Virus genome (UHGV): UHGV-0109393
Source of the DNA: a virus
Strand: one strand, 5' to 3'
DNA length: 63,844 nt
Made by a program: the position numbers and the translations under genes. The notes below the pieces were generated by a model. It did not search any database, was not told where the DNA came from, and was given only the letters and a program-made list of their open reading frames with translations. Position 1 is the stretch's first letter; each line of letters opens with the position of its first letter. This document shows, in pieces, positions 13,376 to 60,850 of the stretch.

Positions 13376-13389
13376 AAATTTCTAACATA
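13376..13389. promoter_or_regulatory. Operator-like site (TGTTAGAAA family, reverse orientation)
   Basis: AAATTTCTAACATA followed by the dyad AGTGTATttatATACACT. Confidence 0.45.
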
Positions 13390-13474
13390 GTGTATTTATA
13401 TACACTGTTGATCCTGTCCGATGTGATCGAGTAGGATCGCGGTCACTGCTCCGGTAGCGATTGCCAAAAAAAGC

Positions 13475-13498
13475 AAAAGCCGCTGAGAAGCGGCTTTT
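13475..13498. terminator. Bidirectional hairpin terminator
   Basis: aaaaGCCGCtgagaaGCGGCtttt. Confidence 0.55.
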
Positions 13499-13560
13499 GG
13501 GTGTATAAATCCACTGGCATAGATTTATACGGTAGATAGATTTTTTCACGGAACTATCTG

Positions 13561-14523
13561 GTGAATATTTTAAATTCAATTTCAGTAACTTTCAACACTT
13601 CTGAGTATAAAAACAACACTGAATACCACAAAAAAATCAAAGGTCATCAGTTGAGTTTTTTTGCTCGTCATAGCGGTTTTCTTTCCCCTTCACATAGCGC
13701 CATTATTGCCGAGTTCGCCAACCTGGCAGGAGCTACCGATGAATACATGATCCGTCGCTCATATGCTGATATGTCCGAGATTACAGGACGCAGTATTTCT
13801 ACTGTGCGCCGGGCATTTGCTGAAGCGACGAAGTGCGGAATGCTTGTTAAGCAACATCAGGTAGCGAATAACAATGCTCAGGTGTGTAACGTATACCGGT
13901 TTACAACACAATTTCTCCACTTCATTCATGTAGCAATGGAGATAGGGGGTAAGCAGGGCATCAAATTTGCGAACGCCACAAAACTGGTTAAGCAGTTGAT
14001 TTCAAAGGTTCGGTATTTTTTTGAAACTGGGAACCCCCTGTTCAAATTGAACAAGTCCCCCCATGTTCAAAATGAACAGCCAATAGAAAATAAGAGTCAC
14101 TCTATAGCCAAAAGAAGAGAAAGATCATGCGCGGTTCAGCCAAAGGCTTCACCAGCGGATAGTTCTCAAGCGGATAATGGGATGCTGGATAAAAAACCAG
14201 TAATCAGGGAAGAACATACCAACCACTGCCTGGCGGCGGCAAAAGCGAGAGCTGCAAAGCGTCGTTCAGACGAGGGGCACGCAAAACGGCAGGCTCTGTA
14301 TCGTACCGCTGAAAAGCTGGCAAAAAAATTTGCATGGATACGTAGTGCCGCTACCGCAGTGAATAAGCCTAAACAATCCAGTGCCCTGGATTTCTCAATG
14401 GATTATTCTGGCTCCCAGGGGTGTGCAACCATTGGTGAAGCCTTTGACCTGATGAAACAGCGTGGCTATCGGTCTGAATTTGACCGGGAGGATTGGTCAA
14501 TCCCTGCGGGATTTAGGGGATGA
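13561..14523 (+). CDS. Hypothetical protein with a probable helix-turn-helix region
   Basis: 320 aa; segment MSEITGRSISTVRRAFAEATKCGML looks HTH-like; function unknown. Confidence 0.4.
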   Translation: MNILNSISVTFNTSEYKNNTEYHKKIKGHQLSFFARHSGFLSPSHSAIIAEFANLAGATDEYMIRRSYADMSEITGRSISTVRRAFAEATKCGMLVKQHQVANNNAQVCNVYRFTTQFLHFIHVAMEIGGKQGIKFANATKLVKQLISKVRYFFETGNPLFKLNKSPHVQNEQPIENKSHSIAKRRERSCAVQPKASPADSSQADNGMLDKKPVIREEHTNHCLAAAKARAAKRRSDEGHAKRQALYRTAEKLAKKFAWIRSAATAVNKPKQSSALDFSMDYSGSQGCATIGEAFDLMKQRGYRSEFDREDWSIPAGFRG

Positions 14524-14839
14524 CCTGTGTGTCTACAAAACATCCCAATGATCGGAAAATGTTCTCTCGATGATTTGTATTAGAAAATTAATTTGCTGTT
14601 TCTAAATCGGAATGTATGATCTGCATCATCGACTGAAGTCATCCATTGCTGAAATTTTTAGTTGATCTTCCATGTTTTCAGGCTTATATTCATGCCGTCG
14701 TAGCAAATTCTGCGACCAGGTTTGACAGCCTGAATGTTAGTGCGGACAACCGCAGATTTCCGATATTGCGGTATTTTTGTGTCCGTAAACCGCGTTACGC
14801 CCGAATTATGGTGGGGCGTGATGGGGAGGCTTAGGCCTG

Positions 14840-14910
14840 CTGGTTTCACTAACGCCAGTCTGTCAACCCTGTCACGTCCTGCCACCTGTTTGACAGCGGG
14901 TAGCAGGTTG
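14840..14910 (+). ncRNA. Candidate c4-type antisense RNA with target sites (module 1); boundaries approximate
   Basis: GTTTGACAGC occurs at 14720 and 14889; its near-complement TCTGTCAACC sits between them at 14858; a second pair is CCTGCCACC / GGTAGCAGG; all lie just upstream of the icd-like RBS. Confidence 0.3.
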
Positions 14911-14936
14911 TTAAACCTGTTAGTGAGGCCGTAACT

Positions 14937-16065: not shown

Positions 16066-16073
16066 TGCGTGAT

Positions 16074-16583: not shown

Positions 16584-16733
16584 ATTTTTCTCCCGGTCAT
16601 GGGTTAATAAGTAGGCAAACTATGGGGAGTATGTGATTTTGACGGTAGTATCGTCCCCCTGAAAATAACATTCTCCATACCCTCTCAACCGTACCGCATA
16701 GCGGATTTTTTACGGTTTAGAGGGGGTAATCCT

Positions 16734-24307: not shown

Positions 24308-24446
24308 AAATAACAAGTTGGGTAAATGCCATGCGATTTACCCTCCTTGTTGATTAAGGTCACTTTTTACTCTAAAAGCAAATCCGACCTGTTGCATATA
24401 GCCCAGCCTTGAGTAGTATCTCTCTTGTTTTACAAATCTAACGCAG

Positions 24447-24938
24447 TTGTTATTATTTCGCTTATTTACTATCAATGGGTGTGTTAGAAAAATAGCGAGA
24501 AAAAGAAGGCGTCGCAGTGAATATTCTGAAACGTCCCCACATGCCGCAGCTCTCAGAGAACTGGAGAAAAACCCAGATCTAATCAAAAGGAACCATGAGC
24601 ATTACGAGCAGGTACGCGTCCTGGATTGGTTGTATCGCAATATGCGCTATGTGTATGAGCATACACACGCCACTCCAAACGGCGGTCTGCGAGGCATAAG
24701 GACGGCAATAAAAATGGTGGCAGAGGGCCAAAAGAAGGGATATCCCGATCTTTCTATAGACCTTGCTTGTGGGGGATACCACGGAATGCGCATTGAGATG
24801 AAACATGGGAGAAATCGCCTGACTCCCGAACAACTCGTCTGGATGACTCGCCTCACCGAAGCAGGTTACTACTGCTTTGAGGCGCGCAGTGCCGCTGAAG
24901 CCATAAAAGCTATCACGGAATATGTTTGTCTTGATTAA
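24447..24938 (+). CDS. VRR-NUC domain (PD-(D/E)xK) nuclease
   Basis: GYPDLSIDLA...MRIEMKHG matches the VRR-NUC Asp/Glu/Lys catalytic motif. Confidence 0.55.
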   Translation: MLLFRLFTINGCVRKIARKRRRRSEYSETSPHAAALRELEKNPDLIKRNHEHYEQVRVLDWLYRNMRYVYEHTHATPNGGLRGIRTAIKMVAEGQKKGYPDLSIDLACGGYHGMRIEMKHGRNRLTPEQLVWMTRLTEAGYYCFEARSAAEAIKAITEYVCLD

Positions 24939-25521: not shown

Positions 25522-25542
25522 ATATGTTAGAAAACTAATTTT
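25522..25542. promoter_or_regulatory. Operator-like site
   Basis: ATATGTTAGAAAACTAATTTT, 10 bp upstream of the ATG at 25553. Confidence 0.5.
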
Positions 25543-25552: not shown

Positions 25553-26773
25553 ATGGGAACTGCAATGAGTCAACAAACTGATACTTCTAATCTGGAAATC
25601 ATCTCAGCCGCGATTGAAACGCTGCGGACACAGATCGCCCTTATTCAAAAGCGGAATCCGGGGGATGACCTGTCCAGACGGTTACATGAGAGCGTCATTG
25701 CCACGACTGATAACCTGGTCGCGGAGATCAACCAGCTACTTGAGGAAGGGACGGTTGATTACAACAAGCTGGTGGATCAGTTTGAGGAATATCAACAAGC
25801 CGTTAATGATGGCTTGATCCGTTTTTCACAAGTCACAGGCGTATCAGCGACAGTTGAAAGTCTTGGCGATGCTGTTAAGCAATTTGCCGCGAGTATGCGT
25901 AGTGAGATCGGCAATCTGGAAGCGCGTCTTGAACAGGCAAACACACTGCGCAAATCCGCAGAAGCCGATTTGAGTCGTTACAAAAAAGACTATCCAGCCA
26001 GCCTGTCAAAACGACTGGATGTTGCGGAGAAGGATAACCGTGCGCTGAAAAGAGAGCGTCGGGAACTAAAAGAGCGTTTAACAGAGCTGAATAAGCAGTG
26101 CATTAAGTATCAAGGCGAAGGTGTCACACTGCGTAAAAAGTTAGCAGCAGCGCAGAACATTATTGAAACGCTGAAACGAGAGTGTTCACAGCTTGGTCAT
26201 GATCTGAACCGCGCTTGTGGTATGGGACAAAGGCCAGAGACATTCCCGCTCATGTATGACGGGGTGGATGCTATTGCCTATATCCATGAGTACCCGCATG
26301 GTCTGGTTGCGGAGACTGGTCAGCGTGGTGAAGCTCTGTTGACGGCTAATTACCATCAACAAATTAGAACCAACCGCCTGCTGACTATGGATGTGATCCC
26401 ATCAGTATGGGGAACGCCGCTTTACTATCGCCTGCCCGGCTTCGAAACGGACTGGAATACCGATATAGACGAATGCCTGGCAGATAAAATTATGGCGTAC
26501 CTGGAGACTGATTTCCCGCGCCTGCATCGCCGGATTATGGACTCTAAGGATGCGCCGATCGATGAATTGAAAATGCGCCCAGAGACGTTGGAAGCTATCA
26601 AACAGACTGCGTTTGATACCGTATTCAGCGTGGCCTGTATCCCAAGTAGTTTTCATGAAAGCATCCCCTTTATGCAGGGCGACCGTCGTCAAGAAATTAT
26701 TGATGCCTGCCGGGTGTGGGCTAACGAATGGGACAAGAAGAATGGGGGCGTAGAAGATCTTTATGGGAAATAA
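25553..26773 (+). CDS. Hypothetical coiled-coil protein
   Basis: 406 aa from the first ATG; single gene bracketed by operator-like sites at 25522 and 26773. Confidence 0.5.
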   Translation: MGTAMSQQTDTSNLEIISAAIETLRTQIALIQKRNPGDDLSRRLHESVIATTDNLVAEINQLLEEGTVDYNKLVDQFEEYQQAVNDGLIRFSQVTGVSATVESLGDAVKQFAASMRSEIGNLEARLEQANTLRKSAEADLSRYKKDYPASLSKRLDVAEKDNRALKRERRELKERLTELNKQCIKYQGEGVTLRKKLAAAQNIIETLKRECSQLGHDLNRACGMGQRPETFPLMYDGVDAIAYIHEYPHGLVAETGQRGEALLTANYHQQIRTNRLLTMDVIPSVWGTPLYYRLPGFETDWNTDIDECLADKIMAYLETDFPRLHRRIMDSKDAPIDELKMRPETLEAIKQTAFDTVFSVACIPSSFHESIPFMQGDRRQEIIDACRVWANEWDKKNGGVEDLYGK

Positions 26774-26792
26774 TATGTTAGAAATCTAATTT
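26773..26792. promoter_or_regulatory. Operator-like site
   Basis: ATATGTTAGAAATCTAATTT. Confidence 0.5.
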
Positions 26793-26928: not shown

Positions 26929-26945
26929 AAGTGTTAGAAAATTAC
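26929..26945. promoter_or_regulatory. Operator-like site
   Basis: AAGTGTTAGAAAATTAC. Confidence 0.45.
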
Positions 26946-27528
26946 ATGCATACAGGGACTCGCTTTGGCACCGAGCAAGCCAAAGTTCAGCAGGTTTAGT
27001 GCGTAAAGTGGTTTCAGAGAGAGCACTTTACGGAGTAAACAACAAGACATGTTGAGCCACGGAAGGTCTTTTTAAGATGTTCATTGATGATGGTCCGGCA
27101 GAGAGTAACGGGACTCGCCGCATCGAATCATCATCAATGCACATCCTCAACATTAAGGAGGCATAGGGATTTTTTTGTGGCGATTACCTTTTGCCCTAAG
27201 TCTCCTTAATGTTGCGGTAATGCACCTATGCGGATGCGGCCTTGCATTGTGTCTTGAAAGAATGGGGTAAGGCCGGGGATATCCCCAGGGGGAGGCACCC
27301 CCGCTGCAACGAACAGCCACAGACGGCAGTCGAGTGATGGAAACGTGCAAAGACTTTAAACCTCGTTACGGCTGGCGTGGCAAACGCGACAACCGAGACA
27401 GAGCGGTGACGGGCGGAGAGAGTGCCGCATCAAGAAAGAAGCCGACTTGTGATCCCTTTCTGCGGGCATTTGAAAGTGAATCCAGCTCAGGCAGTCGGCT
27501 TCTTTCTTGTGTGAGATGTAGCGTATTT

Positions 27529-28012: not shown

Positions 28013-28089
28013 GATGGTGTAGCTCAGTAGGATAGAGCAGCAGCCTTCTAAGCTGTCGGTCGGTGGTTCGAATCCACCCACCATCGCCA
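28013..28089 (+). tRNA. tRNA-Arg (anticodon TCT)
   Basis: Hand-folded cloverleaf: acceptor GATGGTG/CACCATC, D-arm GCTC..GAGC, anticodon loop CTTCTAA, T-loop TTCGAAT, encoded CCA; resembles E. coli argU. Confidence 0.85.
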
Positions 28090-28091
28090 AT

Positions 28092-28167
28092 GCCGGTTTA
28101 GCTCAGTTGGTAGAGCGCCTGCCTTGTAAGCAGGATGTCAGCGGTTCGAGTCCGTTAACCGGCACCA
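28092..28167 (+). tRNA. tRNA-Thr (anticodon TGT)
   Basis: Acceptor GCCGGTT/AACCGGC, anticodon loop CTTGTAA, T-loop TTCGAGT, encoded CCA. Confidence 0.85.
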
Positions 28168-28168
28168 A

Positions 28169-28255
28169 CACAACAGGTAAGGGTATTTTGCGACGTCGGA
28201 GATCGCCGTGCTTGGCAGAGGGTTCGAATCCCTACGAAGTACCCTTACCGTTGTG
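28169..28255 (+). other. tRNA-like hairpin element B (pseudo-tRNA or structured RNA)
   Basis: 16-bp stem (CACAACAGGTAAGGGTA / TACCCTTACCGTTGTG, one mismatch) enclosing a T-arm-like AGGGTTCGAATCCCT; cannot be folded into a canonical cloverleaf. Confidence 0.4.
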
Positions 28256-28632
28256 ATGAAGTGCAGCTCTTTGAAGCAACCAGAAGATAAGCATCTGGCT
28301 TCACAACATAAACCGCAGGAACGACCAATAAACGGTAGTCCGTATGGAGAATACCCCGTTGAGGAAGAGGCCTGGCCGGAACCGTAACCGGCACTACAAC
28401 GTTGAGAACACTGACGTAACGGGGTCATATCCCAATCTACGAATAAATGTTGCGTTGCAGCGTGACAACCAGTGTTCTCAACGTTGTGGTGGATTCGCAG
28501 ACTGATGCGATAGCTTTCTTGGATGTTAGGGAAATGCGGCCGCAAACCTTCCCTTTCGCGAGCGGTGATCGTCCGTAGTCCTAATTGGCTGCACCGTATG
28601 CCGGAGATTCAGTACCGGCCACCACAACGGCC

Positions 28633-28719
28633 GGAGAGTAGGGAGCATGGTGCTCAAGCGGTCTTGAAAACCGTCCCATTGCGCAAGCGATGATGGTTCG
28701 ATTCCATTACTCTCCGCCA
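28633..28719 (+). tRNA. tRNA-Ser (anticodon TGA), long variable arm
   Basis: 87 nt; acceptor GGAGAGT/ACTCTCC; anticodon arm GCGGTCTTGAAAACCGT nearly identical to E. coli tRNA-Ser(UGA) as recalled; T-loop TTCGATT, CCA. D-arm fold uncertain by hand. Confidence 0.6.
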
Positions 28720-28993
28720 GCGCAACGTTAAGAGTATTTGGCTAATTAAGCGAATGCCGGAAGCAGAACCGGATCACCAAATGCGTACAGGCGTCATCGC
28801 CGCCCAGCCAGCCAAGTGCTCTTACCATTGCGGTGAATGCGGCTAAGCGCACGCGGAACAGTTAAAACAATTTTCCTCAATAGTGAAGTCAAACATCCCG
28901 GCGTTAATTGTTAACTGGTTAACGTCACCGGGAGGCACCCGGCACCGCAATCTAACAGCAATGGCGTTTTGTCTTAAAAGGTAGCTGCAAGTG

Positions 28994-29122
28994 ATGGATT
29001 TTTGGGCCTTTGCCGATAAGAACCCTGGTTGGACATTTTTATTTCTGCTGGTGGTTGCATATGGGATCGAGCAAGCGGCAAAAGCCTTACGCGGTTCTGG
29101 CAAAAAGCGTAAGCGGAATTAA
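28994..29122 (+). CDS. Candidate small membrane peptide (42 aa), hydrophobic core with basic tail
   Basis: MDFWAFADKNPGWTFLFLLVVAYGIEQAAKALRGSGKKRKRN; not in the ORF track (under 60 aa); lies between the second AGGCA hairpin and tRNA-Ile2. Confidence 0.25.
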   Translation: MDFWAFADKNPGWTFLFLLVVAYGIEQAAKALRGSGKKRKRN

Positions 29123-29131
29123 CAGTAATCT

Positions 29132-29206
29132 GGCCCTTTAGCTCAGTGGTTAGAGCTGGCGACTCATAATCGCACGGTCACCGGTTCAAGTCCGGTAGGG
29201 GCCACC
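29132..29206 (+). tRNA. tRNA-Ile2 (anticodon CAT, ileX-like lysidine type)
   Basis: Near-identical architecture to E. coli ileX as recalled (GGCCC-TTAGCTCAGTGGTTAGAGC...CTCATAA...GGTTCAAGTCC...GGGGCCACCA). Confidence 0.8.
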
Positions 29207-29660
29207 ATATTTGGTTGTAACACGGCGTATGGCACATGCGTCGTTAGCGGTCTGGTGACGTTAAAGGGGTTACCTTTTCCCCTAGCTCAGGCAACAAACC
29301 AGGTAGCCGGAATGTGCAAGCCCCGTTCATATCGTCGGACCGAGGACTCACCATCCTGGCGATTCGGTGTGACAGCCGGAAGAGTACGGCGCACAACAGG
29401 AAAAGGCGTTTAATTAGCGTGAGCGCCGTTTCCGTTGTGGTAATTGCGGCTATGCGCTCGTGACGAAGCCATTTTCATTCACTACGTTCTGATAAGTGAC
29501 GTCGCCAGGAGTGGCTAACCTGGCAGGTGGAGGCACCACCGCCACAACTCCTTTCAATTCATCATATAGCCGCTCAGGCTGTAACCCTTAATTAATACGA
29601 AGTTTCGACATCTCTATCGGTTTAACCGAGGGATGGTCGCGCGTGTAAAAAGGAGACGTT

Positions 29661-30628: not shown

Positions 30629-30642
30629 CGTTAGATGAATGG

Positions 30643-30660
30643 AATTAATTTTCTAATATA
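30643..30660. promoter_or_regulatory. Operator-like site (variant)
   Basis: AATTAATTTTCTAATATA. Confidence 0.35.
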
Positions 30661-30736
30661 ACCAACTTTTTGCCAGTCTATACAGAAATAACATTCTCAT
30701 TATCATCCCCTCGGTCATTTCCTGCCTGGGGGATTA

Positions 30737-31129
30737 ATGGAGCATATCAGCAGCGCAGAAATTGCGGATATCATGATTAGGGCTGACTGCTATCTGACAG
30801 TCACCGAAATCACCACTCTAGCTAAAGAAAAATATCCTCACCTTCATGTTTCACGAGTAAGTGTAACCAACATCATTCGGCATTTTGTGCGGTCAAGCCG
30901 AGCTATTTGTGAGCTTGATGATCGTGTTTACCCACGGAAATACTGGTTGCATGGCCTGAACGGATATCAGTTCAAGGTGCGCGGGCGCACCCCTGAATAC
31001 GGTAGCTTACTGGTTAAAAACTGTAGCAGGAAATCAGTCGAACAGGCGCGAAAAGAGCAACGAGAGCTGGTGGACATGGCGAATAAGCTGTGGAATGCCG
31101 CCGTTAAAAAGCGTGGTGTTGCTTTATGA
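30737..31129 (+). CDS. Hypothetical protein directly upstream of terminase genes (late activator Lpa-like by position)
   Basis: 130 aa; stop overlaps the pacA start; position only. Confidence 0.3.
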   Translation: MEHISSAEIADIMIRADCYLTVTEITTLAKEKYPHLHVSRVSVTNIIRHFVRSSRAICELDDRVYPRKYWLHGLNGYQFKVRGRTPEYGSLLVKNCSRKSVEQARKEQRELVDMANKLWNAAVKKRGVAL

Positions 31130-32490
31130 GTCTGGTTAATTGGGAAGAGCACCGCGCCAAATTTATAGCGTTGCGTGAAGAAAAAGGGATCACCGTAAAG
31201 GAATACTGCGAGCAACACGACCTTAGCTTCAATACCGCCAGAAAGCATCTCAATATGAAAAAAAATGAGGTGCGGTCGCAGGTGAAGACTACAAAAAAAA
31301 GCACCAAATCACCTCAAAAAAAACGGGCAGGAAGAGCAAAAAAAAGACCAGAAGAGGGTACAGAAACAACAAAATTTACAGAAATTGACAATTCGCAGGG
31401 CACAGGTTCTTTCCGAAGTATGCCGAGAAAGAAAACTTCGGATCATGAAAATAATGCAAATAATAACAATGAGATAAAAGAATCTGTCAGGAGATCATTG
31501 CGCGAAAAAATGGCGAAAATGATCCCCACCGAAGATAAATGCGCCTCAAAAATCGAGGGATCTTCAGCAATGATCCCTGGCGGTGCTGTGCAGCGTGCCA
31601 CGTTGCCCACTACGAGTGTGGCTCGCGACATGATGAAGAACGGCGCAGAAGAGCACCTGCGGTTAGCAATTCAAATGGCGCAAGAACGCGCACTTCAGTA
31701 CCAAAGCATTGTTGATCAGGAGGCCGAACGCCTACAGGCGGAGATAGACGCCCTGGGTGATGAACAGCCAGAAGGAATGCACCCTGGGCAGCGACTTCTC
31801 GGTCTAATCAGTGACGCGGCCTACTACATGAACGATTTTATCAGTAGGTTGGCAGCGATATATCAGTCCGAACAAAAGCTGCGACAGGGTGATGAAAAAC
31901 TTCGTCAGGGTGCTCGCCAGCAAGCATTCAGAGAGGCCGAGGCCAGAGAAAAACTCGAATTAGCACGCCTACAGGCCGAACAGCGTGGCAAAGAGATTGA
32001 ATATCGCATTGGCGCTGACGCACGCGCAGCCAGAGTTATCGCCGCCGCTATACGTATGCGTGAGCGCGAGGAGCTGGACGATATCGGTGTTGCTGAATAC
32101 ATCGAGCGTCAGGGTGTCAGTGTCCCGGCTATCCTCGCGGCGCGCGCGGCGAAAGCTATCACTCTTCTCGAACCTCCAGTTTCTGACATCAATGATGTTG
32201 ATGATGAACAGCTGGACAAAGAAGCGAAGGAGTTTGCATCGCTTCAGGCTAACCATCCGCAATGGCTGGCAGAGCGCCGGGCGGATGTGGCAACCATTGT
32301 TGAAGATCTGGGGTGCGGAGATTACGACCACAATGGCGAGCGTAAGGCTGGGGAATTCGAGGCCAACGATGAAGAGTTGGACATTGACCCTTCGGCAACG
32401 GCTGAAATTTACGGTGATTATGATGCATCAGATGCAGGGTATGACGCCGGAGATGATGATATTGCGATAGAACCGCCGGAGGATGACTAA
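31126..32490 (+). CDS. pacA: Terminase small subunit (PacA-like)
   Basis: 454 aa; N-terminal putative HTH, basic region, acidic C-terminus; immediately upstream of and coupled to the large terminase. Confidence 0.6.
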   Translation: MSLVNWEEHRAKFIALREEKGITVKEYCEQHDLSFNTARKHLNMKKNEVRSQVKTTKKSTKSPQKKRAGRAKKRPEEGTETTKFTEIDNSQGTGSFRSMPRKKTSDHENNANNNNEIKESVRRSLREKMAKMIPTEDKCASKIEGSSAMIPGGAVQRATLPTTSVARDMMKNGAEEHLRLAIQMAQERALQYQSIVDQEAERLQAEIDALGDEQPEGMHPGQRLLGLISDAAYYMNDFISRLAAIYQSEQKLRQGDEKLRQGARQQAFREAEAREKLELARLQAEQRGKEIEYRIGADARAARVIAAAIRMREREELDDIGVAEYIERQGVSVPAILAARAAKAITLLEPPVSDINDVDDEQLDKEAKEFASLQANHPQWLAERRADVATIVEDLGCGDYDHNGERKAGEFEANDEELDIDPSATAEIYGDYDASDAGYDAGDDDIAIEPPEDD

Positions 32491-34023: not shown

Positions 34024-35061
34024 TTACCAGAGTTTAGCGGCGTGCTGTGTTTGGGAGAAAGTGAACCCGTAACGTTCTTCTATGGTTTTACCGTATCTTT
34101 TCCGCGCGTCTGTCAGTTTTATGCCTGTCAGGTCATCTCCGGATGTCATCATTACGTCTAACAACTCCAGATCCATTTTATTCAGTCGCGCCATCGCTTC
34201 GCGTGCTGTCTGTATTTTACGCTCAATGATATGGCGAATAGCCGGATCGGCTTCCTCAAGCATTTTGGCTGATTTGTTCTTTAAGCTCTCATTGCGGATG
34301 TCGATGTTTCGCAAGATGTATGACTTCGCAACATAGCTTGGTTGGTGTTTCTCCAGATCGCGAACGCGATAGAGACTAAAGTCACCAAGCAGGCCGCAAG
34401 GTATCGACTCAACCCCAGAATAAATAGTAATGCTGCGACGTTCGCCGACATTATTAACAACGGGCACTGTGGTGTTCGGAAGTTTTGCGAACACTAAGGC
34501 TCCGTGTGCGCCTACCCTGAATCGTGACAGAGCATTGCTGCCTTCAATGTTTGTTGTAAGCACTACATCTGTGTATCCATCTTTGCGCGCCCGGTAAACT
34601 TCCCCTTCAGGTTCTGATGCGAAAAAACGGCGCTCTTCTTCAAGTGCACCAACAATCTGCGAAAATATCTTGTTTTTCAGGCTTTTCTTTATAATTGCAT
34701 CATATTTTTTGAGCAGATTTTCGCGCGTAAATGAGCGGGTGGTGGTCGCGCTTTGCACAACAATATGCGTGCTTTGATTTGTGTCCTCGATAATGAATGG
34801 GATCGGAGAATATACAGACTCAACAATGTTAGACGCTTTGCCGTCAGCGTTACGGCACAAGTCAACAAAGGCTTTCCATTCTGTGAGGCACTTTTCAGCT
34901 TCTTCTAGCACATTCTGATCATGTGTTAGTGCAACATGGCGGAATTCCTCGCCGGAATAACTGGTATCATGGAAAACAGAGTTTGCGACCACCAGCTCTT
35001 TCCACCGTTCAGCGGTTTGCAGGAACCGTTTGTACTCTTTCTCGATCGACTTCTTACTCAT
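34024..35061 (-). CDS. Hypothetical protein in the c1-equivalent position (between terminase and lox-cre)
   Basis: 345 aa; an operator-like site lies 14 bp upstream of its start codon; no recognisable motif. Confidence 0.45.
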   Translation of the reverse strand: MSKKSIEKEYKRFLQTAERWKELVVANSVFHDTSYSGEEFRHVALTHDQNVLEEAEKCLTEWKAFVDLCRNADGKASNIVESVYSPIPFIIEDTNQSTHIVVQSATTTRSFTRENLLKKYDAIIKKSLKNKIFSQIVGALEEERRFFASEPEGEVYRARKDGYTDVVLTTNIEGSNALSRFRVGAHGALVFAKLPNTTVPVVNNVGERRSITIYSGVESIPCGLLGDFSLYRVRDLEKHQPSYVAKSYILRNIDIRNESLKNKSAKMLEEADPAIRHIIERKIQTAREAMARLNKMDLELLDVMMTSGDDLTGIKLTDARKRYGKTIEERYGFTFSQTQHAAKLW

Positions 35062-35074
35062 TATTCCTACTCGA

Positions 35075-35095
35075 TTTAGTTTTCTAACATAAAAT
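35075..35095. promoter_or_regulatory. Operator-like site
   Basis: TTTAGTTTTCTAACATAAAAT. Confidence 0.5.
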
Positions 35096-35255
35096 TACTA
35101 TGACAAATCTATGCCGAATAACAGGGTGAGTAAAGGATCAAGATGCATTTTTTTATCATCCAATTTAGAAAATTCTGCTTAAAAACTGCCAGGCATAACT
35201 TAAAGCCCACACCAGCAATGCATTGCCCATCTGCGCGGAAAGGAAAAAAATTCCT

Positions 35256-35268
35256 AAATTTCTAACTT
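35256..35268. promoter_or_regulatory. Operator-like site overlapping the left arm of the lox-like site
   Basis: AAATTTCTAACTT. Confidence 0.4.
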
Positions 35269-35295
35269 TAGATAATTGGCATTATTTAAAGTTAG
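35262..35295. other. lox-like recombination site (13-bp inverted arms, 8-bp spacer)
   Basis: CTAACTTTAGATA-ATTGGCAT-TATTTAAAGTTAG; arms match 12/13 to each other; same 13-8-13 geometry as loxP; 152 bp upstream of the Cre-like gene. Confidence 0.55.
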
Positions 35296-35446: not shown

Positions 35447-36475
35447 ATGGGTGAATTAATTATCTCTGGCAGTTCCGGTGGTTTTCTGCGCAACATTGGC
35501 AAAGAGTACCAGGAAGCCGCAGAAAACTTTATGCGGTTCATGAATGACCAGGGGGCTTATGCGCCGAATACTCTGCGCGACCTCCGGTTAGTGTTTCATT
35601 CCTGGGCGCGCTGGTGTCACGCTCGCCAGCTTGCCTGGTTTCCGATCTCACCAGAAATGGCCCGCGAGTATTTTCTTCAGCTGCATGATGCCGATCTGGC
35701 TTCGACCACCATTGATAAGCACTACGCCATGCTGAACATGCTGCTTTCGCATTGTGGCCTTCCGCCACTTTCGGATGATAAAAGTGTTTCTCTGGCTATG
35801 CGGCGCATCCGGCGCGAAGCGGCAACTGAAAAAGGCGAACGAACAGGCCAGGCTATTCCTTTGCGGTGGGATGATCTGAAACTGATCGACGTCCTGTTGT
35901 CCAGGTCAGAACGGCTGGTGGACCTGCGCAACCGGGCTTTTCTCTTTGTTGCATACAATACGCTGATGCGTATGTCGGAAATCTCGCGTATTCGCATAAG
36001 AGATCTGGACCAAACAGGTGACACTGTCACGTTGCATATTTCACACACGAAGACAATAACGACCGCAGCCGGGCTTGATAAAGTGCTTTCCCGTCGCACT
36101 ACTGCTGTGCTGAATGACTGGCTGGAGGCTTCCGGGCTTCGTGAACATCCTGACGCGGTGCTGTTCCCGCCGGTACACCGTAGCAATAAGGCCAGGATTA
36201 CGGCAACGCCCCTTACTGCACCTGCAATGGAGAAAATATTCAGCGACGCCTGGGTGTTGCTGAATAAAGGAGATGCTACGCCAAACAAAGGAAGATACCG
36301 GACGTGGACCGGGCATAGTGCACGCGTCGGGGCCGCTATCGATATGGCTGAAAAGCAGGTGTCTATGGTGGAGATTATGCAGGAAGGAACCTGGAAGAAA
36401 CCGGAAACACTTATGCGGTATCTGCGCCGTGGCGGCGTGTCTGTGGGGGCTAATAGCCGCCTGATGGATTTATAA
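35447..36475 (+). CDS. cre: Cre-like tyrosine recombinase (divergent from P1 Cre)
   Basis: 342 aa; C-terminal WTGHSARVGAAIDMAE...LMRYL aligns with Cre's WSGHSARVGAARDMA...VMNYI; similar length and domain order. Confidence 0.8.
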   Translation: MGELIISGSSGGFLRNIGKEYQEAAENFMRFMNDQGAYAPNTLRDLRLVFHSWARWCHARQLAWFPISPEMAREYFLQLHDADLASTTIDKHYAMLNMLLSHCGLPPLSDDKSVSLAMRRIRREAATEKGERTGQAIPLRWDDLKLIDVLLSRSERLVDLRNRAFLFVAYNTLMRMSEISRIRIRDLDQTGDTVTLHISHTKTITTAAGLDKVLSRRTTAVLNDWLEASGLREHPDAVLFPPVHRSNKARITATPLTAPAMEKIFSDAWVLLNKGDATPNKGRYRTWTGHSARVGAAIDMAEKQVSMVEIMQEGTWKKPETLMRYLRRGGVSVGANSRLMDL

Positions 36476-36494
36476 ATTAAATTTCTAACACATC
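36475..36494. promoter_or_regulatory. Operator-like site
   Basis: AATTAAATTTCTAACACATC, immediately after the cre stop. Confidence 0.45.
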
Positions 36495-45214: not shown

Positions 45215-45252
45215 AAATAATATGTTAGAAAACTAAAATCAACGTTCTAACG
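45215..45252. promoter_or_regulatory. Operator-like site, tandem pair
   Basis: AATAATATGTTAGAAAACTAAAATC then AACGTTCTAACG, upstream of the leftward gene at 45180. Confidence 0.45.
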
Positions 45253-45278
45253 CTTTTTTGAGTGCGTAAATGATTTGA

Positions 45279-49427: not shown

Positions 49428-49592
49428 AACATAAGCACTGCGAAAAGCTCAATACCAAGCTCAAGTAGCGCCAACGCCCCGAAAACCAACACATAGAACA
49501 GGCCAATCTCATTCACAGATGGCTGGTGGATCGCACTTAAAGCTATAAGCATCATGTCCTCCAAACAGTTATCAGGAATGATATTAATGTTT

Positions 49593-49625
49593 TGTGTTAG
49601 AAAATCAATTTTGAATATCTAACCA
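49593..49625. promoter_or_regulatory. Operator-like site(s) in a divergent promoter region
   Basis: TGTGTTAGAAAATCAATTTT plus ATATCTAACCA; between the leftward operon and ref. Confidence 0.45.
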
Positions 49626-49672
49626 TTTTGATCAATCATAGAAAAATCGTTGAAAAGTAAGAGACTGCCATC

Positions 49673-50251
49673 ATGCAGAAACAGAGTTATTGGGAGAAAC
49701 AGAGACAAAAAGCCATGCAAAAATTGGCTGACCCGGCCTGGCGAGAGGAACAAAGGGCAAAGCGCCTTCAACAAGCTCAACGCCAGCAGCAGCGAGCGAG
49801 AGAAAAAGCCGCATCGCCTGAATATCGGCAAAAGAAAATTGAAAAAGCAAAGCAATATGAACAGCGGAGAAAAGATAAAGCTGTATCCGCTCCGCCCAAA
49901 AAAACACGCACGTCACGCGGCCTGAAGGGCAGATCACTCACAGCCGATGAACGCCGGATACAGACCGCTATCGGTACTCTCCCCTGCATTGCCTGCCATA
50001 TTCACGGGCAACATAGCCCAGTAGTATCCCTGCACCATATCTTCGGGAGAACGGCAGAGAACGCGCATAAATATGTCCTCCCTTTGTGTAAATGGCACCA
50101 CCAGTACGCAGCGCCAGCCGAGGTCCGAGAACAATATCCCTGGCTGGTCCCTGTTCATGCTGATGGAAAAATAGGCGGAAAAGCAGATTTCATACGGCAC
50201 AATGCCGATGAAATGGCGTTGTATCAGATGGCGATTGAATTGATAAATTAG
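49673..50251 (+). CDS. ref: Ref-like HNH endonuclease
   Basis: 192 aa; basic low-complexity N-terminus plus HNH core (CIACHIHGQH...LHHIFGR...CKWHH). Confidence 0.7.
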   Translation: MQKQSYWEKQRQKAMQKLADPAWREEQRAKRLQQAQRQQQRAREKAASPEYRQKKIEKAKQYEQRRKDKAVSAPPKKTRTSRGLKGRSLTADERRIQTAIGTLPCIACHIHGQHSPVVSLHHIFGRTAENAHKYVLPLCKWHHQYAAPAEVREQYPWLVPVHADGKIGGKADFIRHNADEMALYQMAIELIN

Positions 50252-50267
50252 TTTTCTAACATTTTAA
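50246..50267. promoter_or_regulatory. Operator-like site
   Basis: AAATTAGTTTTCTAACATTTTA, overlapping the ref stop. Confidence 0.45.
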
Positions 50268-50750: not shown

Positions 50751-50855
50751 AATACTGACTGTTGCGCCCTGGCATTATCGTGGGGTATATTTCTACGGCA
50801 CCTTAGAAAAACGGGTGCCGGGATTGGAACCCCGGATAATGCAAAAGGCGACACA

Positions 50856-50877
50856 GACGCCGAAAGCGTCTTTTTTT
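50856..50877 (+). terminator. Rho-independent terminator
   Basis: GACGCcgaaaGCGTC followed by TTTTTTT. Confidence 0.7.
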
Positions 50878-53083: not shown

Positions 53084-53917
53084 TCACGAATCTCTCTGAC
53101 AATTCAGAAACATAAACGCCCGCTTGTCTGTTAAATCCGTAACATAATACTCTCTCATGCCTGTAGGTTTTATTCTACGAGCATATACAAACTTATGAAC
53201 TGGTTGTTTTTCCCCATAACTTACATCAGTCCTAAATTCATCAACCACGCTACCATCTTTTTCAGTTTCCTTTCTCACTAGCTGATTTTCTAATACAGGC
53301 TTTGATTCGTCCATGCCACTAAAAGCATCCTGACCTGTGCTGTTGCCTCGGTTTCCGCGTGGCAAATCCCATGAAAAATAAGTGCCATAGTCAGTAATCA
53401 CACGATCCCATGTTCCGGAATCCCCCATATAGTTAGAACGCTCCCCCTTGTAAGTTACAGCCACCTTACAGGCATACGTTTCACCATTATTTTTTTTATC
53501 ATGTCCAGCCATGCTTGCAGGAGTTGCAGGGGAATTATGAATAGATGCGCTTACATCATCCTGCGTTAATTCCTCAACTGGAGCAAATTCATATATGGGT
53601 GTGCCGAGGCTATTTAAATATAACTTATATCTAACCCTAAGCGCACTTCCATCAGAGAATTCATACGTTCCCAGACATTGGAGCTTATTTTTTTCTCTTA
53701 TCTCATTGATCTGATTATAAGCATCAATTACAGAGATTGCTTCCTGATCGTCCTTCAGCAGTTCATTATAATCATCGATTAACATCTGTCTGGTTTTAGG
53801 GGCATTACAGTCAATTTTGCTAAAATCATAAGCAAAGGCAAATGTGGGAACAGAGAGAGCAACAACAGTAGCAAGTATTGTTGAGGAACATCTTTTTCCA
53901 TTTTTTATAAAAAACAT
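53084..53917 (-). CDS. Secreted/periplasmic protein with signal peptide (AT-rich moron)
   Basis: Start at MFFIKNGKRCSSTILATVVALSVPTFAFA (GGAG RBS), predicted cleavage after AFA; about 278 aa; AT-rich codon usage unlike neighbours. Confidence 0.5.
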   Translation of the reverse strand: MFFIKNGKRCSSTILATVVALSVPTFAFAYDFSKIDCNAPKTRQMLIDDYNELLKDDQEAISVIDAYNQINEIREKNKLQCLGTYEFSDGSALRVRYKLYLNSLGTPIYEFAPVEELTQDDVSASIHNSPATPASMAGHDKKNNGETYACKVAVTYKGERSNYMGDSGTWDRVITDYGTYFSWDLPRGNRGNSTGQDAFSGMDESKPVLENQLVRKETEKDGSVVDEFRTDVSYGEKQPVHKFVYARRIKPTGMREYYVTDLTDKRAFMFLNCQRDS

Positions 53918-54263
53918 TTCATTAACTCCATACTTTACCATCTTAGCCGCGAGCGCGGTCCCTAAAACCCTTAACTTCACTACCCCGTCCTTCATGTAAA
54001 CAAAATGAGGTTTTATGTTATAAAAACAATCAACTACATCAACATGATTTAGGCCAAGTTTCGGTCAAATAATAAAATCCTCAAAAAGTGGTTGACACTA
54101 TTCTGGAAATCACAAACTGCACATAATCCATCGCGCTAACGGCTCCCGTTGAAGGTTCTTTTGACGATTAACTTTCAGCCGAAGCGCGGTAGGGAGTCAT
54201 AACGCCAAAGCAGGCCGCCATGTGCGGCCTTTTTTTGTATCCGTCATCCGTGGAGGAAGGACA

Positions 54264-54917: not shown

Positions 54918-55245
54918 TCACATTAGTAGCTTTGTTAACTCCCTCAATACCAGGTAGAAGAGTAACAAAAATATTGACGCCAGTATTTGAGTGGTCAATG
55001 AGGCGTTCATAAACAGATCAATAAGCTTTAACAATTCTAGAATAACATCCATGTCATTCACTCCGTTTAATTTTTAATCTAATGCCAGCAAATGAAGCTG
55101 GCCCCCGCATAAAGATTAATGAAAGTCACTTGTCACCAGTGAGGGGATTTATGAACCACATCCCCCTGAACTGGTGGCCTGTCTGTTTCTCGCATTTCAC
55201 ACCCTGCATACAGTTTCCACCAGGTTATGACTGAGAGGCTTTGTT

Positions 55246-56798: not shown

Positions 56799-57158
56799 TC
56801 ATACACCAACCAGGCTTTCAAGAGGAATGCCAAACTGGGAATGTAAACGACGAATCATAGGTAACGTTAAATTTCGTGTCCCATTTAGCACTTCGTAAAC
56901 ACGATTTGACTTACCAATCGCCGGTTCCAGATCCTTCACGGTCAGCCCTTGCTGTTCCATACGGAATTTAATGGCTTCAATAGGTGATGGTGGCTCAATT
57001 GGGTAATGCTTTTTCTCGTACTCTTCAATGAGCAGGCACATTACTTCAAAGAAATCGCCTTCCGGTGTGTTCATTTCCGGTTCGTTATCGAACATCGGTT
57101 CGACCGCACGCAGTGCGGCCTCATAATCTTGTTCTGTACGGATAGGTTTAATGTTCAT
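56799..57158 (-). CDS. higA: HigA-like antitoxin (HTH-XRE)
   Basis: 119 aa; C-terminal HTH LTVKDLEPAIGKSNRVYEVLNGTRNLTLPMIRRLHSQFGIPLESL; directly downstream of the toxin. Confidence 0.7.
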   Translation of the reverse strand: MNIKPIRTEQDYEAALRAVEPMFDNEPEMNTPEGDFFEVMCLLIEEYEKKHYPIEPPSPIEAIKFRMEQQGLTVKDLEPAIGKSNRVYEVLNGTRNLTLPMIRRLHSQFGIPLESLVGV

Positions 57159-57464: not shown

Positions 57465-57494
57465 CACAGATTCCTTCTCGCTGAAAGTATAGTA

Positions 57495-57540: not shown

Positions 57541-57567
57541 ATGAATTGAAATCACAATCTCCAGACA

Positions 57568-58401: not shown

Positions 58402-59165
58402 CTTCAAATAAAACCCTCCTGGCGCGAACAGGTGAATGGCAAACCTCACGCACAGGGAAATTCCAGACCACGGGCTTTGAAAACGTGGATAACGCGTTTG
58501 CTACGCTAATCAGCAATATCTTTTCTGATATCTTACTGGTGGCCCCCGCGCCGGAAGAAAAACGCTTTGCGTCATTCCTGAATCGTCCACCAGCAGAGCG
58601 TGTCTATGTGGCCCGTTTCGACAATGCGATCGAGTTTCTTAAAGCAGTTCGTCGCGCAAATGCCGGGCAAGGAAGAAAACCGGAAAACCAGAACATTAAT
58701 CGCGATGCCTTGCCGTTGATCAACATCTCCCGGTCTATGGATATCAGCTATATCAATGATGATCAGCAGATAGACCGCAGGCAAACTGCCAGTTTTTGCA
58801 ACCCGGATACTGGAATGCCTTTAGCGACTCTGGAATACACCCAGGCTATCCTGACTTATGACGTTACGTTAATGGCTACTGATAAAGCAACCATGAGTCT
58901 GATGTGTAATTCGCTGGGCGCGCGGCTCCGCCTGATGACCGGAACACAATTTGAGGCAAACACTAACCTGGTGCGTGTTCCTGTTCCTCTGATTTGCTCC
59001 ATTCAGGATGCTAAAGACGTTGGATTTACGGATGTTTCGGCACCAGTGGGAGAAGAGAGGATTTATGCTACTCAGGCACCTGTAAGCGTCATTGCGGATG
59101 TAATCACAGCCTGGGAATTGGACGCGAAACGCGTTGTTACTGAAACCTCGCTGGCTATGGGGTAA
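58398..59165 (+). CDS. Hypothetical protein
   Basis: 255 aa, coupled to the upstream gene. Confidence 0.4.
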   Translation: MTSNKTLLARTGEWQTSRTGKFQTTGFENVDNAFATLISNIFSDILLVAPAPEEKRFASFLNRPPAERVYVARFDNAIEFLKAVRRANAGQGRKPENQNINRDALPLINISRSMDISYINDDQQIDRRQTASFCNPDTGMPLATLEYTQAILTYDVTLMATDKATMSLMCNSLGARLRLMTGTQFEANTNLVRVPVPLICSIQDAKDVGFTDVSAPVGEERIYATQAPVSVIADVITAWELDAKRVVTETSLAMG

Positions 59166-59168
59166 TCA

Positions 59169-60149
59169 ATGTCCCAGGAGTTACAACAATACTTCCTCCA
59201 GTCAGTCACAATTAACGATAACAAAGTGCCACGAGACTGGATTTTTACCGCAGTGTACGTGGAAAAGAGCAGCCTTAAAGCGCCGTTATTGAAGCTGGAA
59301 ATTCATGACATGACAGGCACCATAATTGATGACTGGAAAGCTAAATACGGTGCATCGCTGGTGGCTGAAATGGGCGATCCAAACGGTAATGCAGGCACTT
59401 TTAAAACAACTTTTTTTGTTACGTCAGCAATGCTGGCTGGGGATGTAGTTACCGTTATTGCGGTCAGTGAAGACGTGCATCGGTTTAAGATCCCCTCCCC
59501 TCGCACCAATCTACACACGAACAAAACGCCGGACACCATATTCAAGGCGTATAGCGGCAATCTTAAAATTTCCAGCAGTGTCTTAAAGCGTGCGGTTACA
59601 TATCACCTGAACGCAGGCGAAAAACCGTCAAAAATGCTCTCGCAGATAGCGCGAGACAAAGGTGCATTATGTTGGGTATGCCGGGGGGAATTTAACTTTT
59701 ACACCCTGGCTGATCTGATGAAGCAAACGCCATCATTTACCTACGAGGGGAATAACCCTAAAGCAGAATACACTTTGTCCAAAATGCGCCTACTCCAACA
59801 GGAACATGCGACAACAGCAAAGAATCATTATCGTTTTGTTGGGTATTCCATGACCGATGGCTACGTCGAATATGGCGATAGCTCACTCCCAGTGCGTTAT
59901 ATATCCGACTCTGATATGGAAACTCTTCGCAATATGCAGCTGTCTCTCGTCCCCAAAATGGATATAGAAGTCGCAGGCAATCCGGATATAAAACCGGGGA
60001 TGGTAATAGAGATTATCGTATACCGCTATGACCAGGAAAACCGCATTGATGAATCAATGCCCCGTAAGCTGATAGTAAAAAATGTTGCGCACTTTGAAGA
60101 CCGCGTAGGCTACACAACACGAATGATATTAGGAGTGCCGAACAAATGA
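59169..60149 (+). CDS. Hypothetical protein
   Basis: 326-aa ORF. Confidence 0.4.
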   Translation: MSQELQQYFLQSVTINDNKVPRDWIFTAVYVEKSSLKAPLLKLEIHDMTGTIIDDWKAKYGASLVAEMGDPNGNAGTFKTTFFVTSAMLAGDVVTVIAVSEDVHRFKIPSPRTNLHTNKTPDTIFKAYSGNLKISSSVLKRAVTYHLNAGEKPSKMLSQIARDKGALCWVCRGEFNFYTLADLMKQTPSFTYEGNNPKAEYTLSKMRLLQQEHATTAKNHYRFVGYSMTDGYVEYGDSSLPVRYISDSDMETLRNMQLSLVPKMDIEVAGNPDIKPGMVIEIIVYRYDQENRIDESMPRKLIVKNVAHFEDRVGYTTRMILGVPNK

Positions 60150-60799
60150 AGCGTAGAGCGCAAATTGTTGGAACTGTGCACCCGGCAGGGCTTATGCGTG
60201 CTCAAGTCCGTGTTTTACCTGACTGGAATGGCGTTCCTGATGACGATCTACCCTGGGCGGAATACCTGTTACCCATCGGAAACGCTTTTGTACCCACAGT
60301 CAAAGGTGACCTGGTCTGGGTAGAGTTTCCTTATTTAGATGTTAACGGTCGAATAGACACCAGACGCCCAATGATAGTTGGTGCCGCTCAGGATGCACCG
60401 GGAGGAATTCCAAACGTTGCACCAGAAGCATCTGGCAAAGGCAACGGCTGGACGCCGCCGGAAGTAGATGGAGCACCTCCCCGCCCCCAAATCTCAGCAA
60501 CGAAAGACTTCGTTATTCACCGCAACAATATTCTTGAAGTACGAACTGCTGGTGGCGGCTATGAAATTGCCAATACGGCAGCAGGCTCAAGGATTGGCAT
60601 GAATGAGTCAGGGCAGATATATATCATTGGTCCGGCTGATGTAATCGTGAATGCAGGAGGGAGTGTTAACGTCAAATCAGCCAACAACATCAATGTTAAT
60701 GGGGAAAATATAGCTGTCACCGCTAACGGAGACATAGCTTTCAAGGCAGGAGGAACCTTTCAGGCCACTGCTGGCAACTTCGATTTCAAGAAAGGATAG
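60146..60799 (+). CDS. Hypothetical Gly-rich protein
   Basis: 217-aa ORF. Confidence 0.4.
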   Translation: MKRRAQIVGTVHPAGLMRAQVRVLPDWNGVPDDDLPWAEYLLPIGNAFVPTVKGDLVWVEFPYLDVNGRIDTRRPMIVGAAQDAPGGIPNVAPEASGKGNGWTPPEVDGAPPRPQISATKDFVIHRNNILEVRTAGGGYEIANTAAGSRIGMNESGQIYIIGPADVIVNAGGSVNVKSANNINVNGENIAVTANGDIAFKAGGTFQATAGNFDFKKG

Positions 60800-60810
60800 A
60801 AAATGCACCC

Positions 60811-60850
60811 ATTTGTGTTAGATAATTAACATGTATTTTCTAACACAAAT
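60811..60850. promoter_or_regulatory. Operator-like dyad (two inverted TGTTAGA half-sites)
   Basis: ATTTGTGTTAGA...TCTAACACAAAT, a perfect 12-bp inverted repeat with 16-bp spacer, just upstream of rdgC. Confidence 0.5.

Follow-up and report, generated by a model that had tools for sequence, protein, structure and literature searches.

The C1 protein of phage P1 is a proven operator-binding repressor (PMC8546580), and the consensus of its operators, ATTGCTCTAATAAATTT, is found at 22 dispersed sites (PMC8546580). The annotation of P1 (AF234173) lists 20 C1 operators together with 11 late promoters, and the sequences of these operators yield the same consensus. Here we analysed a 63,844-nucleotide stretch of the virus genome UHGV-0109393 (the window), in which a sequence-only reading had noticed an AT-rich, operator-like motif scattered between genes and had likened it to the operator set of P1 C1. 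The P1 operator that it had given agrees with both AF234173 and PMC8546580, and is absent from the window. By alignment and gene order, the window is a plasmid prophage of the P1 family resembling phage D6, the known D6-like group comprising phage D6 (NC_050154/MF356679; immC region AY753669) and plasmid prophages such as pYU39_89. The best megablast match of its 30-50 kb part against phage records is Escherichia phage D6 (95.9% identity), followed by P1-family phages, and local BLAST shows it to be collinear with D6 throughout in reverse orientation (D6 35019 through the origin to 61117; ~95% identity). The order of c1, lpa, pacAB, rox and dre is that of D6, and the gene names used below are annotation transferred from D6.

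The motif, with the core TGTTAGAAA, is with high probability the dispersed operator set of a D6-type C1 protein encoded at 34024..35061(-), which would make it a heteroimmune version of the P1 circuit. It is most likely an expected feature of a P1-family prophage and not a new kind of system or regulatory principle. Among the 10 full-text matches listed of 226, no phage paper giving the motif was found, a coverage that did not extend to the publications on the D6 genome (Gilcrease & Casjens 2018) and on its immC region; no operators are annotated in the D6 GenBank records.

Recurrence and intergenic placement of the motif

The exact core TGTTAGAAA is represented by 11 matches on the two strands of the window, against 0.55 expected, a number reached by none of 100 dinucleotide shuffles (Poisson P ~3e-11, before correction over ~1.3e5 words). 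In an unbiased count of 9-mers it was the most over-represented word of the window once words derived from Chi had been set aside. The same method applied to P1 as a positive control returned the known C1 operator (TTGCTCTAA/TGCTCTAAT) as the top non-Chi word (14 occurrences vs ~0.85 expected) and therefore recovers real operator sets in the P1 family. Sites were further scored with a 20-bp position weight matrix (PWM) of consensus ATATGTTAGAAAATTAATTT, using a fixed training set, a first-order Markov null and a threshold of at least 16 for strong sites. An iterated low-threshold PWM drifted into generic AT-rich sequence and was replaced by this procedure. Fifteen strong sites were obtained against 0.2 expected, eight on the plus and seven on the minus strand, spanning 13.4-60.8 kb, which bears out the claim that the motif recurs in both orientations. 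The motif is asymmetric and about 17-20 bp long; its head TGTTAGAAAA is the more informative part, the AT-rich tail nTAATTT contributing more weakly.

Intergenic DNA makes up 11% of the window and holds 13 of the 15 strong sites (binomial P=3e-11). When the Markov model was trained on intergenic DNA only, 0.08 exact cores were expected in that compartment and 10 were seen; AT-richness is therefore not the explanation of the motif, and the mostly intergenic location reported in the sequence-only reading goes beyond AT content. Three inverted pairs share the geometry GTTAGAn-N14-nTCTAAC, at 45224-45251, 49596-49623 and 60815-60846.

Predicted operators

Predicted operators and weaker matches are as follows (window coordinates, strand).

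13371..13390 (-): operator of repL, PWM 25.4, 171 bp upstream of repL; syntenic with D6 site 22464, at the place of P1 OrepL/Op53
14575..14594 (+): operator of a1b1-c4-icd-ant (immI-like), PWM 28.0, 109 bp before a1b1; at the place of P1 Oc4/Op51
24425-24444 (+): weak pmgM site, PWM 13.5, flanking a sigma-70-like promoter; kept in D6
24479-24498 (+): stronger pmgM site, PWM 17.0, at the annotated 5' end of pmgM, flanking a sigma-70-like promoter; kept in D6
25522..25541 (+): operator in the pmgR/pmgS spacer, PWM 29.8; identical in D6, in the region of P1 OpmgR
26773..26792 (+): first operator of the tRNA-operon leader, PWM 28.1, directly past pmgS at the head of a 1.2-kb leader; at the place of P1 Oban
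26929..26948 (+): second operator of the tRNA-operon leader, PWM 21.2
30642..30661 (-): operator of lpa, PWM 25.9, variant core TATTAGAAA, 76 bp upstream of lpa
35073..35092 (-): operator of c1, PWM 26.6, 12 bp upstream of the c1 start codon; identical in D6, at the place of P1 Oc1
35164..35174 (+): possible weak distal c1 operator with the variant head TTTAGAAAATT, its window sequence scoring too low to pass the PWM threshold
35251..35270 (-): doubtful site, PWM 9.7 (~5 such scores expected by chance), overlapping the left rox-like arm
36474..36493 (-): operator at the dre 3' end, PWM 28.7, upstream of the orf117-orf116-dut operon; identical in D6
45220..45255 (strong 45220+, weak 45236-): inverted pair in the ppp/pdcB spacer, GTTAGAA-N14-TTCTAAC; kept in D6 and the Enterobacter element
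49592..49627 (strong 49592+, weak 49608-): inverted pair where orf88 and ref diverge, at 62 bp from ref on its upstream side; P1 Oref
50245..50264 (-): operator over the ref stop codon, PWM 27.5, geometry and strand as in P1 Omat; a footprint in the alignment of relatives
53279..53298 (-): borderline site within the simB-like coding sequence, PWM 16.1; identical in D6, of doubtful function
54013..54032 (+): weak site in the simB/mat spacer, PWM 12.8; the D6 syntenic place scores 15.8, and the Enterobacter element has GTTAGAAAA at 2894 in the same spacer
60809..60852 (60813+, 24.1; 60829-, 22.4): strong inverted pair of bivalent type, 11-27 bp upstream of hrdC-mtase-dmt; P1 Odmt

All positions given in the sequence-only reading proved right within a few bases, with two qualifications: the site at 30643 has the variant core, and that at 35256 is the weak match of the list above. 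The perfect dyad described at 60811..60850 is present, its 18-nt arms (60809-60826 and 60835-60852, 8 nt apart) being 94% complementary and not perfect. The listed sites were all found; missing from the list were the strong site at 14575, those at 24479 and 53279, and the weak halves at 45236 and 49608.

A strong sigma-70-like promoter (TTTACA-16-TATTAT with a TG motif) lies at 24429-24456 near the pmgM start. In sigma-70 scans the 13-31 kb region has fewer promoter-like sites than shuffles, and a relaxed custom scan placed hexamers near ~10 of 14 sites, which is weak evidence in AT-rich DNA. The site at 50245..50264 stands upstream of orf86-orf85-isrK-like-c4-icd-ant, the second immI-like operon. 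The rox-like site itself, TAACTTTAGATAAT-TGGC-ATTATTTAAAGTTA, occupies 35264-35295. It differs by one base in one arm from what we take to be the canonical D6 rox.

The C1 repressor

34024..35061 (-): c1, 345 amino acids, D6-type C1-family repressor and presumed binding protein

Two reading frames had been put forward as the possible repressor. The first, 34024..35061, is the D6 c1 homologue, matches phrog_1678 and stands in the position of P1 c1; the second, 13561..14523, turned out to be RepL (98% identical to D6 RepL) and hence no repressor. The window protein is 89.6% identical to D6 C1, the gene of which is annotated c1 in AY753669 as 'similar to the C1 repressor of P1'. The family phrog_1678 is matched end to end by window C1 and by P1 C1 (E 7e-159 and 3e-140, respectively), the two proteins share 20% identity over 239 amino acids in BLASTP (E 6e-8), and an alignment of six C1 proteins contains 17 invariant columns. 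The gene lies between pacB (32490-33998) and the rox-like site and dre, as in the P1 order pacB-c1-lox-cre. On these sequence grounds, 34024..35061(-) is a divergent member of the C1 family and the D6-type homologue of P1 c1. The NCBIfam equivalog of P1 C1, NF041318, gave window C1 a score of 23 bits against a cut-off of 500; a Pfam domain was found neither in window C1 nor in P1 C1, and a search for a solved-structure relative of window C1 found none.

Identity of the c1 protein to D6 (89.6%) is lower than that of its neighbours pacB (97.6%), dre (97.4%) and lpa (99.2%). Because these flanking genes are far closer to D6 than c1 is, the window c1 appears to be an allele distinct from that of D6, which the comparison suggests. 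The same or a near-identical allele (at least 99%) was observed in at least 25 plasmids of E. coli, Salmonella and Shigella. The operators of the window are those of D6 despite the allele difference.

With regard to the accessory proteins of P1, neither the window nor D6 gave a tblastn match at E<=0.01 to Lxc, Coi, ImcA/B, KilA, Ban or Ssb. Several of the genes that C1 controls in P1 are thus missing from the D6 lineage or replaced there, as is the accessory part of immunity. Lxc has been reported as missing from D6-like elements (PMC6799933). Because Lxc and Coi homologues are not detectable, the accessory layer of the lysogeny switch probably differs from that of P1.

Correspondence with the P1 operators

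The predicted operators of the window occupy the following places of the P1 set.

P1 Olpa, 71 bp upstream of lpa: window 30642-30661, 76 bp upstream of lpa
P1 OrepL, upstream of kilA-repL: window 13371-13390, upstream of repL
P1 Oc4, 115 bp before the a1/b1 targets, then c4, icd and ant: window 14575-14594, 109 bp before c4-a1b1 (14684), then C4 (14804), icd and ant
P1 Oref, upstream of ref: window 49592-49611
P1 Omat, 2628-2645(-), over the ref stop codon (ref end 2637): window 50245-50264(-), over the ref stop codon
P1 Odmt, upstream of uhr-hrdC-dmt: window pair 60809-60852, upstream of hrdC-mtase-dmt
P1 Obanab, at the head of the dicF-like/tRNA/tci/ban operon: window 26773 and 26929, at the head of the tRNA-cluster leader
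P1 OpmgR, upstream of pmgR: window 24425/24479 and 25522, around pmgM-pmgR-pmgS
P1 Oc1, upstream of c1: window 35073-35092, before c1

The orientation of the motif relative to the downstream gene agrees with P1 at four of six comparable loci. No counterpart of P1 O26 was found among the window sites, and Ossb, Orlf and OpmgT belong to genes of which the window has no homologue. Scored with a PWM derived from 18 of the annotated P1 operators, the window yielded two weak matches of at least 12 against 2.4 expected, and the P1 core TGCTCTAAT occurs there 0 times; conversely, the D6-type PWM gave no score above 16 on P1. The proposal of a distributed set of the P1 C1 type with a distinct specificity is thus supported by the c1 homology, the P1-equivalent positions and the absence of P1 operators, binding itself being predicted.

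Co-variation of repressor and motif among relatives

Searches of plasmids with C1 (tblastn) returned a graded series of relatives at 100%, ~89.6% (the D6 allele), 81%, 73%, 71%, 42.5%, 28%, 27% and lower identity. The IS26-riddled mosaic NZ_CP010154, a plasmid with a C1 of 70%, was left out. Conservation of the sites in related prophages, which had been suggested as a check, was observed: D6 and the elements of E. fergusonii and Enterobacter keep the motif at the same junctions. All 15 strong sites are syntenic in D6, which has one more between gp23 and orf52 and none in its 23-54 kb structural block. The hrdC pair is likewise kept in D6. In the E. fergusonii element (C1 73% identical) copies of the motif precede c1, lie where the recombinase gene ends, and surround pmgS.

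The Enterobacter plasmid pJBIWA008_2 (C1 42.5%) carries GTTAGAAAA 10 times against 0.26 expected, at both ends of ref, upstream of pdcB, c1 and lpa, and on both sides of pmgS. This element was used for the conservation test because D6 is ~95% identical to the window, which leaves the test underpowered. Site positions are 68% identical between the window and the Enterobacter element, against 52% elsewhere in the same regions (P=0.006), and three-way alignments of six intergenic regions show the motif blocks as conserved islands amid diverged DNA. The site at 25522..25541 forms such an island when the Enterobacter element is aligned, and the block ATTAATTTTCTAA of the lpa operator is kept 13/13 in the window/D6/Enterobacter alignment. 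The two sites of the tRNA-operon leader (26773 and 26929) are syntenic in D6 and in the Enterobacter (L007) and E. fergusonii (L011) elements, and the latter two also keep the c1-proximal site 35073..35092. The possible distal c1 operator at 35164..35174 aligns to a full-consensus site, GTTAGAAAAT, of the Enterobacter element. The orf88/ref pair leaves a footprint in the alignment of relatives.

In the Citrobacter plasmid (C1 28%) the D6-type motif is absent, and a word CCTTAGAAW, of the CCTTAGAAT type, occurs 9 times against 0.57 expected. It is found in the rdgC/gp5 spacer (at 5775, the equivalent of the hrdC pair), upstream of both ref (at 13614, the equivalent of the orf88/ref pair) and the lpa-like gene, where the recombinase gene ends, in the spacer separating that gene from c1, past the pmgS-like gene, and between pro and its neighbour. 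The site at the dre 3' end has counterparts both in this element (CCTTAGAAT at 18374) and in that of E. fergusonii (at 6506). Counts of the three words are as follows.

P1: TGCTCTAAT 14, TGTTAGAAA 0, CCTTAGAAW 1
Window: TGCTCTAAT 0, TGTTAGAAA 11, CCTTAGAAW 1
D6: TGCTCTAAT 1, TGTTAGAAA 12, CCTTAGAAW 1
Citrobacter element: TGCTCTAAT 0, TGTTAGAAA 1, CCTTAGAAW 9

The motif words are reciprocally exclusive among the P1, window and Citrobacter elements. Constant positions, combined with a word that changes in step with a strongly diverged C1, are what a co-evolving pair of repressor and operator predicts and what a conserved host factor would not produce.

A wider generalization is possible, though we hold it rather doubtful: the phrog_1678 repressors, for which there is neither a Pfam domain nor a solved structure, may form a set of immunity types in which a short TTAGA/TCTAA-like operator core and the genomic positions are kept while the flanking bases switch, the D6 lineage lacking Lxc and Coi and having two C1-controlled antirepressor modules. 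The operator words would then be TGCTCTAAT for P1, (T)GTTAGAAAA for D6 and Enterobacter, and CCTTAGAAT for Citrobacter. Alignment of the D6-type motif to the P1 operator gave only 7-10 matches of 17 in either orientation, and the shared TCTAA core is kept as speculation.

A separate motif upstream of late operons

The upstream regions of late operons share a motif other than TGTTAGAAA, namely GAAATMACAWWCT-N3-(-10 hexamer). With at most one mismatch, GAAATMACAWWCT has seven matches in the window against 0.79 expected.

5381-5393 (+): GAAATMACAWWCT site
10612-10624 (+): GAAATMACAWWCT site
16628-16640 (-): GAAATMACAWWCT site
16662-16674 (+): GAAATMACAWWCT site
30685-30697 (+): GAAATMACAWWCT site
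54106-54118 (+): GAAATMACAWWCT site
57548-57560 (+): GAAATMACAWWCT site

At these sites a -10-like hexamer follows after 3 nt, and the gene, always in the same direction as the motif, lies 34-146 bp downstream. The downstream genes are lydA, prt, the lysozyme-like gene orf16, darB, lpa, mat and gp7, and in D6 also R and upfC. These features fit GAAATMACAWWCT as a candidate late box for the D6-type Lpa, a PF25716 protein sharing 31% identity with its P1 counterpart. According to the annotation of AF234173, the Lpa-dependent late promoter of P1 has a -22 box, AAGTGACTT, followed by N4 and TAnAAT. The window contains one good match to this P1-type box, AAGTGACTTTCATTAATCT (score 17.4), at 55113-55131(-). 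This match lies in the spacer between orf77 and orf76/gp26 and points toward orf77; P1 has the LP26/LPpmgL pair there.

Alternative explanations

Several observations weigh against the assignment of the TGTTAGAAA motif to C1. The PWM thresholds come from the very sites being scored, the exact-core statistics being independent of the PWM; two of the 15 strong sites fall within coding sequence; the lpa operator and the best -35 candidate do not overlap, the operator lying ~18 bp farther upstream; and sigma-70 consensus scans give no convincing promoter over every site. Site conservation against D6 alone is not significant (97.8% vs 95.6%, P=0.13), the genomes being too similar, and from the Pantoea relative (C1 27% identical) an operator-like motif was not extractable. 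That C1 is the binding protein, that it represses by binding and with what stoichiometry, we infer. Finally, the head of the motif is almost unchanged in the Enterobacter element with a C1 of only 42.5% identity, and divergence of C1 and of its operator is therefore not tightly proportional. The latter finding would also suit binding of the motif by another phage-encoded protein, e.g. the orf72-like regulator at 56799-57158(-) or an unannotated small protein, with C1 acting elsewhere, as would the lack of a recognisable Pfam DNA-binding domain in C1. We regard this as unlikely, since the sites stand at the places of experimentally defined P1 C1 operators, including one directly before c1, no alternative repeated motif of the window is fit to be the C1 operator set while P1-type operators are absent, and P1 C1 likewise has no Pfam domain yet is a proven repressor (PMC8546580).

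The AT-rich composition of the motif and its presence in promoter regions could point to a site of a host global regulator or nucleoid protein, or to a generic AT-rich promoter element. The resemblance of TAGAAAATTAAT to part of YAGHAWATTWTDCTR, presumably the consensus of Lrp from systematic evolution of ligands by exponential enrichment (SELEX), was counted in favour of such a host factor. However, the invariant TGT/GTTAG head is not in the Lrp consensus, intergenic AT content predicts far fewer cores than were observed, and CCTTAGAAT in Citrobacter and TGCTCTAAT in P1 stand at the same junctions though host regulators are conserved across these Enterobacteriaceae, which makes a host factor very improbable. 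A role of the motif as the box through which Lpa acts at late promoters of the D6 lineage is scarcely credible. A new box must exist there, given that the D6-type Lpa is so distant from that of P1 and that P1-type boxes are essentially absent, but GAAATMACAWWCT-N3-(-10) fills this role, being co-directional and upstream of late genes, whereas the TGTTAGAAA sites face either way, keep no constant distance to a -10 and stand before early and regulatory genes including lpa and c1. Recurrence by chance or base composition, for which only the AT-richness of the motif speaks, has a practically negligible probability in view of the shuffles and the Poisson estimate, and syntenic sites are kept in four other elements.

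Predicted regulatory circuit

If the motif is the operator of D6-type C1, this protein would recognise the operator word TGTTAGAAAACTAAT, with a protected unit centred on TGTTAGAAAAnTAAT. In the plasmid-prophage state C1 would occupy about 15 dispersed operators overlapping or abutting the promoters of lytic-entry and accessory operons. Predicted targets of repression are lpa-pacAB (and via the late activator all late genes), repL for lytic replication, and the two c4-icd-ant antirepressor operons, as well as ref, hrdC-dmt, the tRNA operon, pmgM/pmgS, the dre-distal genes and pdcB. The c1 gene would be autoregulated from the site before its own start codon, and each of the three inverted pairs may bind two C1 molecules, or support looping, like the bivalent operators of P1. 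Because the operator sequence differs completely from that of P1, the element is expected to be heteroimmune to P1 and P7.

Phage-plasmids of the D6-like and P1-like kinds occur commonly in E. coli, Salmonella and Shigella, and resistance genes can be among their cargo. The value of the present analysis lies in a concrete operator consensus, a predicted C1 regulon to which the late activator and two antirepressor operons belong, and evidence that C1 comes in several specificity types. With the D6-type operator defined, mutual exclusion between elements gains a testable marker of immunity, and matched repressor/operator pairs orthogonal to P1 C1 are possible genetic parts. Combined with the late-promoter candidate, the operator set would give a nearly complete transcriptional map of the lineage. 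If the generalization to immunity types is true, the immunity group of any P1-like phage-plasmid, including those carrying antimicrobial resistance, could be read from sequence.

Gene map of the element

The D6-transferred map runs as follows.

Part 1: tail-fibre/cin; lydAB-hdf-darA-ddrAB; prt-pro; repL; icd-ant; darB-ulx; pmgM-pmgR-pmgS
Part 2: tRNA cluster; orf6-orf5; lpa, pacA, pacB; c1 (-); rox-like site; dre
Part 3: long leftward accessory block; ref; second icd-ant; pmgF, simB, mat
Part 4: gp26-gp25; gp7-gp24-gp6-gp5; hrdC-mtase-dmt
13561-14523: repL, lytic replication initiator
30737-31129: lpa (D6 transfer; Lpa is PF25716)
32490-33998: pacB
35447-36475: dre
49673-50251: ref
First immI-like module: c4-a1b1 (Rfam) 14684-14736; C4 14804-14889; then icd-ant
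Second immI-like module: isrK-like RNA 50798-50876; C4 50921-51008; then icd-ant

Rfam revealed two C4 antisense-RNA loci in the window, each followed by icd-ant, and the element therefore has two immI-like antirepressor modules. The tRNA cluster (28013-29207) comprises Arg(tct), Thr(tgt), Ser(tga) and a Met/Ile-type (cat) tRNA; the window lacks tciA/tciB, which D6 has here, the junction being at about 28955-29126. The Chi sequence GCTGGTGG is extremely enriched, with 45 copies in the window (29 on the plus and 16 on the minus strand, e.g. at 12746, 15214 and 31066), or ~1 per 1.4 kb, and its extensions are the top over-represented 9-mers. P1 has 50 copies, and the relatives from Enterobacter, Citrobacter and Pantoea have 45-53 in their 41-kb loci.

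Comparison with known systems

P1 has ~20 dispersed asymmetric 17-bp operators, monovalent ones besides the bivalent Oban and Oc1ab. The window differs from this system in its operator consensus, which is unrelated to that of P1, in the length of C1 (345 amino acids vs 283 in P1), in the distance of the c1-proximal operator from the start codon (12 bp vs ~85 bp), in its two c4-icd-ant modules against one, and in its inverted pairs, the heads of which are 14 bp apart, a wider spacing than in Oban and Oc1ab. The late promoters of P1 are likewise a dispersed short motif upstream of transcription units, but they are co-directional, keep a fixed distance to the -10 and precede structural and lysis operons. 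Judged by operator sequence, by the equivalog score of C1 and by Lxc and Coi, the window is not of the P1/P7 immunity type.

The resemblance to P1 immC nevertheless extends to a homologous repressor, a similar number of sites scattered genome-wide, asymmetric sites in both orientations with some inverted pairs, and the same controlled loci (lpa, repL, c4-icd-ant, ref, the ref 3' end, hrdC-dmt, the tRNA operon, pmgR/S and c1). With its c1 homologue in the c1 position, more than 10 dispersed asymmetric operators of predicted binding at the corresponding loci and a mixture of monovalent and bivalent sites, the window site set has those defining features of a P1-type C1 regulon that can be read from sequence.

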